The notes under the pieces: model-generated | Told to the model about the DNA's origin: nothing | The model's input: only the letters and a program-made list of their open reading frames with translations | Database searches by the model: none | IMG/VR virus record: IMGVR_UViG_3300020049_002596 | Location: 1 to 64,000 of that record | Length of the DNA: 64,000 bases | Direction: 5' to 3' (one strand) | DNA from: a virus | Taxonomy: Duplodnaviria > Caudoviricetes | Program-made: the position numbers and the translations under genes | In this document: in pieces, positions 2,440 to 25,969 of the stretch | How positions within the stretch are numbered: the stretch's first letter is position 1 | How the letters are laid out: every line of letters begins with the position of its first letter

Positions 2440-3285
2440 TTAGAAAATGTACCTAATACTTTCAATAGGAAAATATTTTATGTATAAAGCTACAAACTGA
2501 TTAATCAAACCTTGTTTGAAATGTCTTTCATATCTGATATTGTCAGCTGCATATTCAGAATCTTTAGACTCTTGAATAGTAGGTTGCCACAGATAATAAT
2601 TGACATCAGAATTGTTTCTCTCAGCTTGCATCCTGTTGTAAGTCACAAAGATACACTCTGATTTAAAGTCCAGTCCTTGAAGTTGTTTGAATAATTCTTC
2701 ATAGTCTTCTAACCAAGTAGGGTAGTAAACTATAGGACTAAAATTTAAATGGACTTCCATTTTCTTTTGAAGTACAGGTATCATAGCAATCCTGTCTGAT
2801 ATAGTATCAGTATTAGGTTCTAAGATACTTGAGATCTTTTGAGGCATAAGACTAATTCTTATCCTGTGTTTACCTGGAGCCAAGTTATACTCATCTAGCT
2901 TAAATCTAGTAGGGTACTTGGTGGCAAAAGTAGTTTTAACTTTGTACTGTGTATTGAAGAAATCAAATACTTGCTGCCAATTATAGTGTTTACTATGTAA
3001 AGCAACATCAGTACTACATCCTATATCCACACAATAGTAAGTATCATCAACTTGATTGGGAACTTTAGGCCAAGGCTTAGAGTCTACCCATGAATAAATA
3101 GAAGCTAAAATTTGCTCTGTATTCTCATTGATATATACTTTGTCAAAGTTATACCTTCCAACATAACAATATGACTTCATACAACCTCCTAGACAGCCAT
3201 AGATAAAGTTAGGAGCAATGGCATCACTGCTCCTACTATTATCTCTGGTTTTAAGGGTCTTAGTCTTTTGCTTCTTTATTTCCAT
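2440..3285 (-). CDS. Spore photoproduct lyase family radical SAM protein
   Basis: RSSDAIAPN, GCLGGCMKSYCYV cluster motif, DIGCSTD, FATKY, RIRISLMP, HLNFSPI. Confidence 0.75.
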   Translation of the reverse strand: MEIKKQKTKTLKTRDNSRSSDAIAPNFIYGCLGGCMKSYCYVGRYNFDKVYINENTEQILASIYSWVDSKPWPKVPNQVDDTYYCVDIGCSTDVALHSKHYNWQQVFDFFNTQYKVKTTFATKYPTRFKLDEYNLAPGKHRIRISLMPQKISSILEPNTDTISDRIAMIPVLQKKMEVHLNFSPIVYYPTWLEDYEELFKQLQGLDFKSECIFVTYNRMQAERNNSDVNYYLWQPTIQESKDSEYAADNIRYERHFKQGLINQFVALYIKYFPIESIRYIF

Positions 3286-3505
3286 AAGGGAGATAAACTG
3301 CTAAAATTTCTTTACAAGCCTTACTATAATCAAAAGGTATAAACTCATGGTCTGTTGTAAACTCCACTATAACAGCAGGTTGAGCAGCATTTGCAGATTC
3401 TTCTACAGTTAGGTCAAAACTATAACCAATACCGTTGTGTGTATACATTCCCCTGTAAAAAATGTGTTTTGCATAAGGGTGTCTTTCAAGATTTACTTGT
3501 GTCAT
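3260..3505 (-). CDS. Hypothetical protein
   Basis: ORF in a tightly packed operon. Confidence 0.55.
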   Translation of the reverse strand: MTQVNLERHPYAKHIFYRGMYTHNGIGYSFDLTVEESANAAQPAVIVEFTTDHEFIPFDYSKACKEILAVYLPYGNKEAKD

Positions 3506-25466: not shown

Positions 25467-25561
25467 TGGAAAGTACAGGATTTGAACCTGTGTACCTATT
25501 TTTCAAGGATCTTAGCCTAAGATTATGAGAACCTCCCTCATAATTCCAAAATGAACTTCCC
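25467..25561 (-). tRNA. Atypical tRNA-like element (acceptor and T arm intact, D/anticodon region non-canonical)
   Basis: GGGAAGT pairs with ACTTTCC plus discriminator A (G3.U70); T arm ACAGG-TTCAAAT-CCTGT; 95 nt. Confidence 0.55.
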
Positions 25562-25565
25562 TTTG

Positions 25566-25969
25566 TGGACCCGCTGGGAGTTGAACCCAGGTCTTAAATA
25601 CTTCAATATTAGAAATTTATACAGCTTGTTTTACCAATGTGTCTTTTAATTCTGCTTTGGCAATGCAAGAATAGGGTCAACTGTTAAGAAGACCTCCACC
25701 ATCCAGTTTTCTATCCTGGCAAACTGAGTATTAATCTACCTATTTTTGGTTAGGCAACCATCGCCAACTCTTCTCTTGAAGAGAATAAGTTAATAACACC
25801 ATTGATGATGCTATCTACTACATTCATATTAGCTGCTATTTGTGCGTTGTCTTCTAAAGATACTACACTGTTGTTTGTGTTTCCAATTACTTGATTCACC
25901 TTAGTTTACAGTTATCTCTCTGGCTGATTTCTAACACATAACATACCTAATCAAAGCCAAGTCGGGCCC
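25566..25969 (-). ncRNA. ssrA: tmRNA
   Basis: 5' GGGCCCGAC.TTGGCTTTGA; 3' GACCTGGG-TTCAACT-CCCAG-CGGGTCCA; 7-bp acceptor with G3.U; internal tag ORF 25884-25750; 404 nt. Confidence 0.92.

Follow-up and report, generated by a model that had tools for sequence, protein, structure and literature searches.

The stretch of DNA analysed here (64,000 nt, hereafter the window) comes from an IMG/VR virus record of 95,512 bases that is rated complete, and carries on its minus strand a one-piece tmRNA gene of 405 nt (25565..25969), the sole RNA gene called in the window by ARAGORN. The Rfam tmRNA model RF00023 aligns over its full length (model positions 1-374) to positions 25563-25969 (-), with a score of 74.3 bits (E = 5e-27) against a curated cut-off of 47 bits, and covariation within the family supports the same assignment. 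The first-pass annotation of this DNA had described a complete tRNA-like domain with a G3.U pair, and this is borne out by the sequence, with both ARAGORN and RF00023 calling a complete tmRNA. The acceptor stem pairs the 5′ strand GGGCCCG (25963..25969) with CGGGUCC, the latter lying together with the T arm CUGGG-UUCAACU-CCCAG (25590-25574) and the discriminator A (25566) in the segment 25566..25590, which is recognisable from the sequence, the Rfam alignment, and covariation. Within this stem G3 (25967) pairs with U70 (25569), the alanine identity pair, which is kept in 69 of 69 full-length relatives, with acceptor positions 4-7 covarying. The 3′ end of the gene reads A-CAA, not A-CCA, and addition of CCA after transcription would therefore be needed.

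The consensus fold of 14 relatives obtained with RNAalifold recovers the acceptor stem, the long helix 2 that replaces the anticodon arm (5′ strand 25923..25950, 3′ strand 25594..25625), the T arm, and a short helix 5, with two-sided changes in 21 of the 43 consensus pairs. The T arm and helix 2 covary, with helix 2 showing many two-sided pair changes. Helix 5 (CCUA/UAGG, 25739..25754) encloses the stop codon UAA (25752-25750), and its pairs are kept in all 14 relatives, with C:G replaced by U:A in four of these. A conserved block of 27 nt, AGAGAGAUAACUGUAAACUAAGGUGAA (25895..25921), occupies the position of pseudoknot 1, to which RF00023 aligns it. This block is better conserved across the family than the tRNA-like domain, and a clear pairing partner is not seen. 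As the block is invariant it is without covariation, with only a 3-bp hairpin predicted there across the 14 relatives, and the region includes 35 nt that are identical between the window and the crAss-like Cellulophaga phage phi14:2. The block may be a protein-binding site in place of the classical pseudoknot 1. The middle part of the RF00023 alignment, corresponding to pseudoknots 2-4, has low posterior probability. From the stop codon to the 3′ end there are 185 nt in the window and 126-281 nt in the family, compared with ~270 nt in host tmRNAs (by arithmetic from coordinates), and this shorter stretch in the phage means that some of the pseudoknots are probably absent.

The window belongs to a crAss-like flavobacterial phage that is close to FpV4, a phage of Flavobacterium psychrophilum (Fipvunavirus). 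Its major capsid protein is 82% identical to the FpV4 counterpart and 25-32% identical to those of Crassvirales, and a terminase, portal, DNA polymerase, and helicases are recognisable in the genome. The tmRNA gene stands first in the replication module on the minus strand. It is flanked by small unknown ORFs and, downstream, by a gene of 229 residues (phrog_16309, function not known), with no Pfam match found among the neighbouring genes except for one metallophosphoesterase. No homologue of smpB, clpP, lon (sought as Lon_C), or sspB was found in the whole 95.5 kb genome, which extends to the complete record the earlier remark that no smpB is seen in the window. ARAGORN likewise finds no tRNA gene in the 95.5 kb genome, making the tmRNA its only standard translation RNA and one that lies outside any tRNA cluster. 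Lacking smpB, clpP, lon, sspB, and tRNA genes, the phage needs host factors for the RNA to act. A tRNA-like element is also present 28 nt past the 3′ end of the tmRNA (25467-25537, -), with an acceptor stem GGGAGGU/ACUUUCC containing G3:U70 and a perfect T arm, and with no normal anticodon arm. It scores 23.5 bits with the Rfam tRNA model (cut-off 29) and is not called by ARAGORN, and a crude screen of 69 relatives found a tRNA-like element following the tmRNA in just 3.

An exact pattern taken from the AGAGAGAUAACUGUAAACUAAGGUGAA block retrieves the tmRNA family from at least 119 IMG/VR contigs, many of them 88-124 kb in length, and blastn recovers the RNA from 29 phages of the FpV4 group, none of which has it annotated. 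The family exposes gaps in present annotation, with ARAGORN missing the FpV4 copy (Rfam score 58.2 bits) and shortening the tag both in the window and in phi14:2 (called as GSSVQKLAMVA), and with the Rfam cut-off just missing phi14:2 (RF00023, 46 bits). In GenBank records the gene is absent and small spurious ORFs are placed over it. The unannotated tmRNA lies at 3011-3425 in the FpV4-group loci and at 2963-3432 in the phi14:2 locus, where five tiny hypothetical ORFs (gp011-gp014 and part of the gp010 neighbourhood) overlie it. A relaxed 19-base pattern gave 13 matches among 185,579 species genomes, approximately the number expected by chance on our own estimate, with a phage-like tmRNA (83.9 bits) found among these 13 only on one short Flavobacteriales MAG contig.

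Following GUAAUU, a reading frame is open from GGA at 25884 to the stop codon within helix 5, spanning 44 codons (25753..25884; 135 nt counting the stop) and encoding GNTNNSVVSLEDNAQIAANMNVVDSIINGVINLFSSREELAMVA, the peptide read from the window exactly as the first-pass annotation gave it. A single open frame of 44 codons in AT-rich DNA has a chance of roughly 4% per frame (a rough estimate), and is therefore not rare by chance, so that the weight of the argument lies with conservation. The proposed resume codon, GGA (Gly, 25882..25884, gene position 86), is preceded by the frame-setting context UAAUU (25885..25889), with U at -5 and A at -4. In E. coli tmRNA the equivalent nucleotides U85 and especially A86 fix the frame, with A86 nearly universal (PMC2481249). 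The U-5/A-4 context is found at the GGA-type site in 69 of 69 full-length distinct relatives, 10-13 nt past the conserved block. The Rfam consensus, UAAuU followed by GCa AAC, aligns with high posterior probability on UAAUU followed by GGA AAC in the window, and the tmRNA of host Flavobacteriaceae (UAAAC followed by GGC GAA) aligns on the corresponding sites of phi14:2 (UAAAC, GGA AAC) and the window (UAAUU, GGA AAC). Glycine is thus the first tag residue in the host as well as in the phage, with the resume codon at gene positions 95-96 in host Flavobacteriaceae and 84-91 in the phage family. Candidate sites were chosen from the upstream letters alone, and the site so chosen is in frame with a downstream Ala-Asn-Met (A-N-M) and stop-free in 88 of 88 distinct relatives, as well as in two more with GAAAU followed by GAC (90 in total).

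ARAGORN instead resumes translation at GCU (25831..25833), which would yield a 27-residue tag, ANMNVV...AMVA, and leave the preceding 51 nt as an untranslated spacer. This A-N-M resembles the A-N-D start of proteobacterial tags, and the GCU site of the window, like that of 30 of the 69 relatives, also has the U-5/A-4 context. However, only 34 of the 69 have A-4 here, although it is near-universal in tmRNAs (PMC2481249), and the distance to the conserved block varies from ~28 to 64 nt, compared with the 10-13 nt of the upstream site, on which the host resume codon also aligns. The supposed spacer, moreover, occurs in seven lengths (18, 24, 27, 30, 39, 42, and 51 nt), each divisible by three, and no stop interrupts it in any of the 90 sequences; of the other two frames in the 51-nt class, one is closed by stops in all 24 sequences and the other in 6 of the 24. 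Three codons ahead of the alanine of A-N-M stands a glutamine that is invariant in 65 distinct tags whilst being encoded by both CAA and CAG, which indicates that conservation at the peptide level reaches upstream of the ARAGORN start. Coding constraint across the 17 upstream codons is weak, a point in favour of GCU: pN/pS before A-N-M is 0.57-0.74, reaching 2.0 in the class with the shortest segment, and the variable sites fall equally on all codon positions. Between the window and FpV4, however, the differences there amount to five synonymous and two conservative changes. The translation of these 17 codons consequently rests on the frame, the absence of stops, the site context, and the invariant glutamine, and from these features of the sequences we read them as a translated, loosely constrained linker. 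On the grounds of frame, site context, and alignment the 27-residue tag is rejected, resumption at GCU being in our judgement improbable. The resume codon that the first-pass annotation had placed at GGA 25884 from context is thus the best-supported site, rather than one near the 3′ end of the ORF. A conventional small-protein gene was also considered and discarded, as the upstream GTG at 25899, in frame in the window, loses the frame in FpV4, and the ORF is contained within a tmRNA that shows covariation.

Tags of the family range from 26 to 45 codons with a mode of 35, placing the window near the top. The core of the window tag, Q15-I-A-A-N-M-N-V-V-D-S-I-I27 (25804..25842), contains the residues Q, A, N, and M that are invariant among the 65 distinct tags, and corresponds to the family core Q-[VI]-x-A-N-M-x-x-V-[FHY]-[SN]-[LI]-[LI], in which the x just before the V is V or K in a narrower form of the motif (A-N-M-x-[VK]-V). 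The alanine of A-N-M is encoded by GCU, GCA, GCC, and GCG, and the asparagine by AAC and AAU, with pN/pS from A-N-M to the stop falling to 0.28-0.57 (but 0.77 in a single class of three sequences); variation there is approximately twice as frequent at third positions. AlphaFold2, run on the tag alignment, predicts a single helix over residues 10-43 with pLDDT values of 89-93 over residues 11-30, for what is an isolated short peptide of a kind for which such helices are readily predicted. Residues 20-26 of the window tag have a high helical hydrophobic moment. Of 69 tags, 64 end in AA (AVAA, ELAA, LIAA, and others), AVAA being the end of the Caulobacter tag as well, and the other 5, including that of the window (LAMVA), end in VA. 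The MVA end on which the first-pass annotation had remarked is therefore present in the window but is a minority form, with most relatives ending in AA. The LAMVA end is common to the window and the distant phage phi14:2. The tags are also mosaic, with the N-terminal module of the window joined to three different cores and ends in relatives. Longer proteins carrying the tag motif were not found at E <= 0.01, which is weak evidence. That more than 100 related phage contigs keep the same extra motif leads us to conclude, from sequence conservation, that the long tag is very probably translated and selected.

The chromosomal tmRNAs of three Flavobacteriaceae genomes of the host type score 145-163 bits with RF00023 and encode tags of nine residues, GEDNYALAA or GENNYALAA, in keeping with the ~GENNYALAA cited for Bacteroidota in the first-pass annotation and with its description of the 44-residue tag, whose ORF is conserved, as unusually long. 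Each genome encodes one SmpB and also ClpP and Lon, and no SspB was found in the host-type genomes examined. The host and phage RNAs share an acceptor stem with G3:U70, the T arm, helix 2, a glycine resume codon after UAAAC or UAAUU, and a stop codon in helix 5, with the first 18 nt of the host tmRNA nearly identical to those of phi14:2. They differ in that the host tag of 9 codons lacks the internal motif, whereas the phage tag of 44 codons (26-45 in the family) carries it invariantly, in the lower Rfam score of the phage RNA (74 bits), in its shorter post-stop stretch, and in the lack of smpB from the phage genome. Whilst this low score and lack of smpB, and the report that a molecule of the tRNA-like domain alone inhibits tmRNA (PMC4131195), might suit a host-captured passenger that does no tagging or a mere decoy competing with host tmRNA for SmpB, both are most improbable, the former given an open, length-variable, in-frame ORF with an invariant motif and synonymous variation that is kept in at least 119 contigs from two or more distant phage lineages, and the latter because a decoy could do without an ORF, the U-5/A-4 context, and a stop codon in helix 5. 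Taken as one joint claim, it is likely, and we hold with good confidence, that the window RNA is a working one-piece tmRNA gene that resumes at GGA 25884 and from which the long tag is translated.

In phi14:2 the tmRNA sits in one of two 690-nt stretches without ORFs of 60 residues or more, which flank an ORF of 106 residues and which, counting plus-strand ORFs from the left end, correspond to the g004-g005 and g005-g006 junctions. Drobysheva et al. describe two abundant, early, and persistent "long non-coding RNAs" of phi14:2, with the junction transcripts running rightward at an abundance above that of most genes (bioRxiv 10.1101/2020.03.07.982082). The tmRNA is probably one of these RNAs, that of the g005-g006 junction if the mapping by our own ORF count is followed, and the published phi14:2 RNA-seq probably already contains it, as an early transcript of high abundance with no assigned function. 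A further conserved non-coding element accompanies the tmRNA in many relatives and is absent from the window. It lies at 1836-2522 in the phi14:2 locus and 100-300 nt upstream of the tmRNA in many loci of the family, with examples at 985-1137 in locus L031, 2733-2830 in L011, and 5585-5789 in L106. One 32-nt block of this element recurs in 15 loci with three mismatches or fewer, and the element has no match in Rfam. It is probably the other abundant "long non-coding RNA" of phi14:2.

Phage-encoded tmRNAs are known from mycobacteriophages of the Bxz1 group, from Bacillus phage G (PMC4131195), and from huge phages (PMC7162821). They have been counted in 402 of 18,146 phage genomes (PMC9004378), and the share of phage genomes with a tmRNA is put at 2.3% (PMC4131195; PMC9004378). 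The mRNA-like domain of tmRNAs spanned 48-126 nt in a 2005 survey (PMC1168896), compared with 135 nt for the window frame and its stop. The Bxz1 tmRNA encodes the tag ATDTDATVTDAEIEAFFAEEAAALV, which at 25 residues is atypical, ends in LV, and provides a precedent for long phage tags. Like the window RNA it is a complete phage-encoded tmRNA with a long atypical tag, but the tag sequences are unrelated, the hosts and lineage are other, the tags of the window family are longer, and the Bxz1 tmRNA lies inside a large tRNA cluster whereas the window phage is without any tRNA. In Mycoplasma pneumoniae a tag of 27 residues is read by Lon (PMC8403727; PMC3985003). The two tags are alike in being long and rich in hydrophobic residues. 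In the Mycoplasma tag internal parts matter for recognition along with the end, and it offers a precedent for length going with a change of protease. Set against a Mycoplasma-type length of at least 27 residues, the window has 44 codons and the family 26-45, with an invariant internal motif. Mycoplasma, however, lacks ClpXP and has a tag ending in AFA, whereas the flavobacteria of the host type keep ClpP and Lon and most of the phage tags end in AA, and there is no sequence similarity between the tags beyond an A-rich K/N/D start. Since ClpP and Lon are kept in the host-type genomes, the Mycoplasma cause, in which loss of ClpXP leads to a Lon tag, does not apply here as such. A full-text search of the literature found no paper describing this tmRNA family, its tag, or its motif.

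Trans-translation is universal in bacteria, with the tag normally serving as a short degradation signal. In the mechanism that we propose, host AlaRS would charge the phage tmRNA with alanine, and host SmpB and EF-Tu would deliver it to ribosomes stalled in the infected cell, where the nascent chain would gain the alanine and the 44 encoded residues before the ribosome is freed at UAA. Our best guess is a tag with two working parts. One, the hydrophobic C-terminus (in most relatives AA, in the window MVA), would be read like an ordinary ssrA degron. The other, the helical core Q-x-x-A-N-M-x-x-V-x-x-I/L-I/L, would offer a further handle to a protease or adaptor of the host, with Lon, as with the long Mycoplasma tag, or an unrecognised phage factor as candidate readers. 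The invariant internal motif, which the first-pass annotation had not noted, points to such an added function, on the strength of its conservation and of the helix predicted for the isolated peptide. The proposal of the first-pass annotation that the tag redirects rescued proteins to a different protease or fate is plausible, whilst its suggestion that the tmRNA and the Ubl operon form two phage protein-tagging routes is speculation.

The same RNA and resume codon could serve a different end, as the alternative to degradation concerns only the fate of the tagged proteins and shares both the identity of the gene and its resume codon with our best explanation. Under this alternative ribosomes are rescued, yet degradation is not what the long tag signals. 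The conserved helix would do another job: it might jam or titrate a chaperone or protease of the host, direct truncated chains to a membrane or into aggregates, or label them for a phage factor. Conservation is stronger in the internal motif than at the C-terminal end, which in the window is MVA and not AA, and the hydrophobic moment of residues 20-26 would suit such a role. Furthermore, the hosts own a short working tag together with ClpP and Lon, so that length is unneeded for ordinary degradation, and with no other phage translation RNA the tmRNA stands outside any general supply package. Opposed to this, the 64 of 69 tags that end in AA do so after a hydrophobic residue, a classical ClpX-type end that includes AVAA, and neither a partner protein nor a similar motif in longer proteins has been identified. 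A non-proteolytic role of the helix is thus a serious rival, although we consider it rather unlikely that the tag has no part in degradation. The two-part signal is favoured by the combination of a classical AA end in most tags with an invariant internal helix that is absent from host tags. That the phage, and not the host, would set the fate of the rescued chains is, on the sequences compared, a conclusion we advance tentatively. More doubtful is a broader reading, in which phages of Bacteroidota, and perhaps phages generally given Bxz1, would use tmRNAs of their own to rewrite the outcome of ribosome rescue, with Q-x-x-A-N-M-x-x-V-x-x-L-L as a phage-specific signal that passes all rescued chains to a chosen host or phage factor, which could be an unusual protease, a protease to be blocked, or a recycling route.

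The tmRNA of the window belongs to a large phage family found in abundant marine and freshwater crAss-like phages, with tags three to five times the host length that carry an invariant motif. Two members of this family, phi14:2 (Cellulophaga) and FpV4 (Flavobacterium), are cultured together with their hosts, and the question of what the tag does is hence testable. Conservation of the long tag suggests that the phage may dictate the fate of proteins from stalled ribosomes during infection, and if true this would constitute a new layer of host take-over, one that acts on unfinished proteins.
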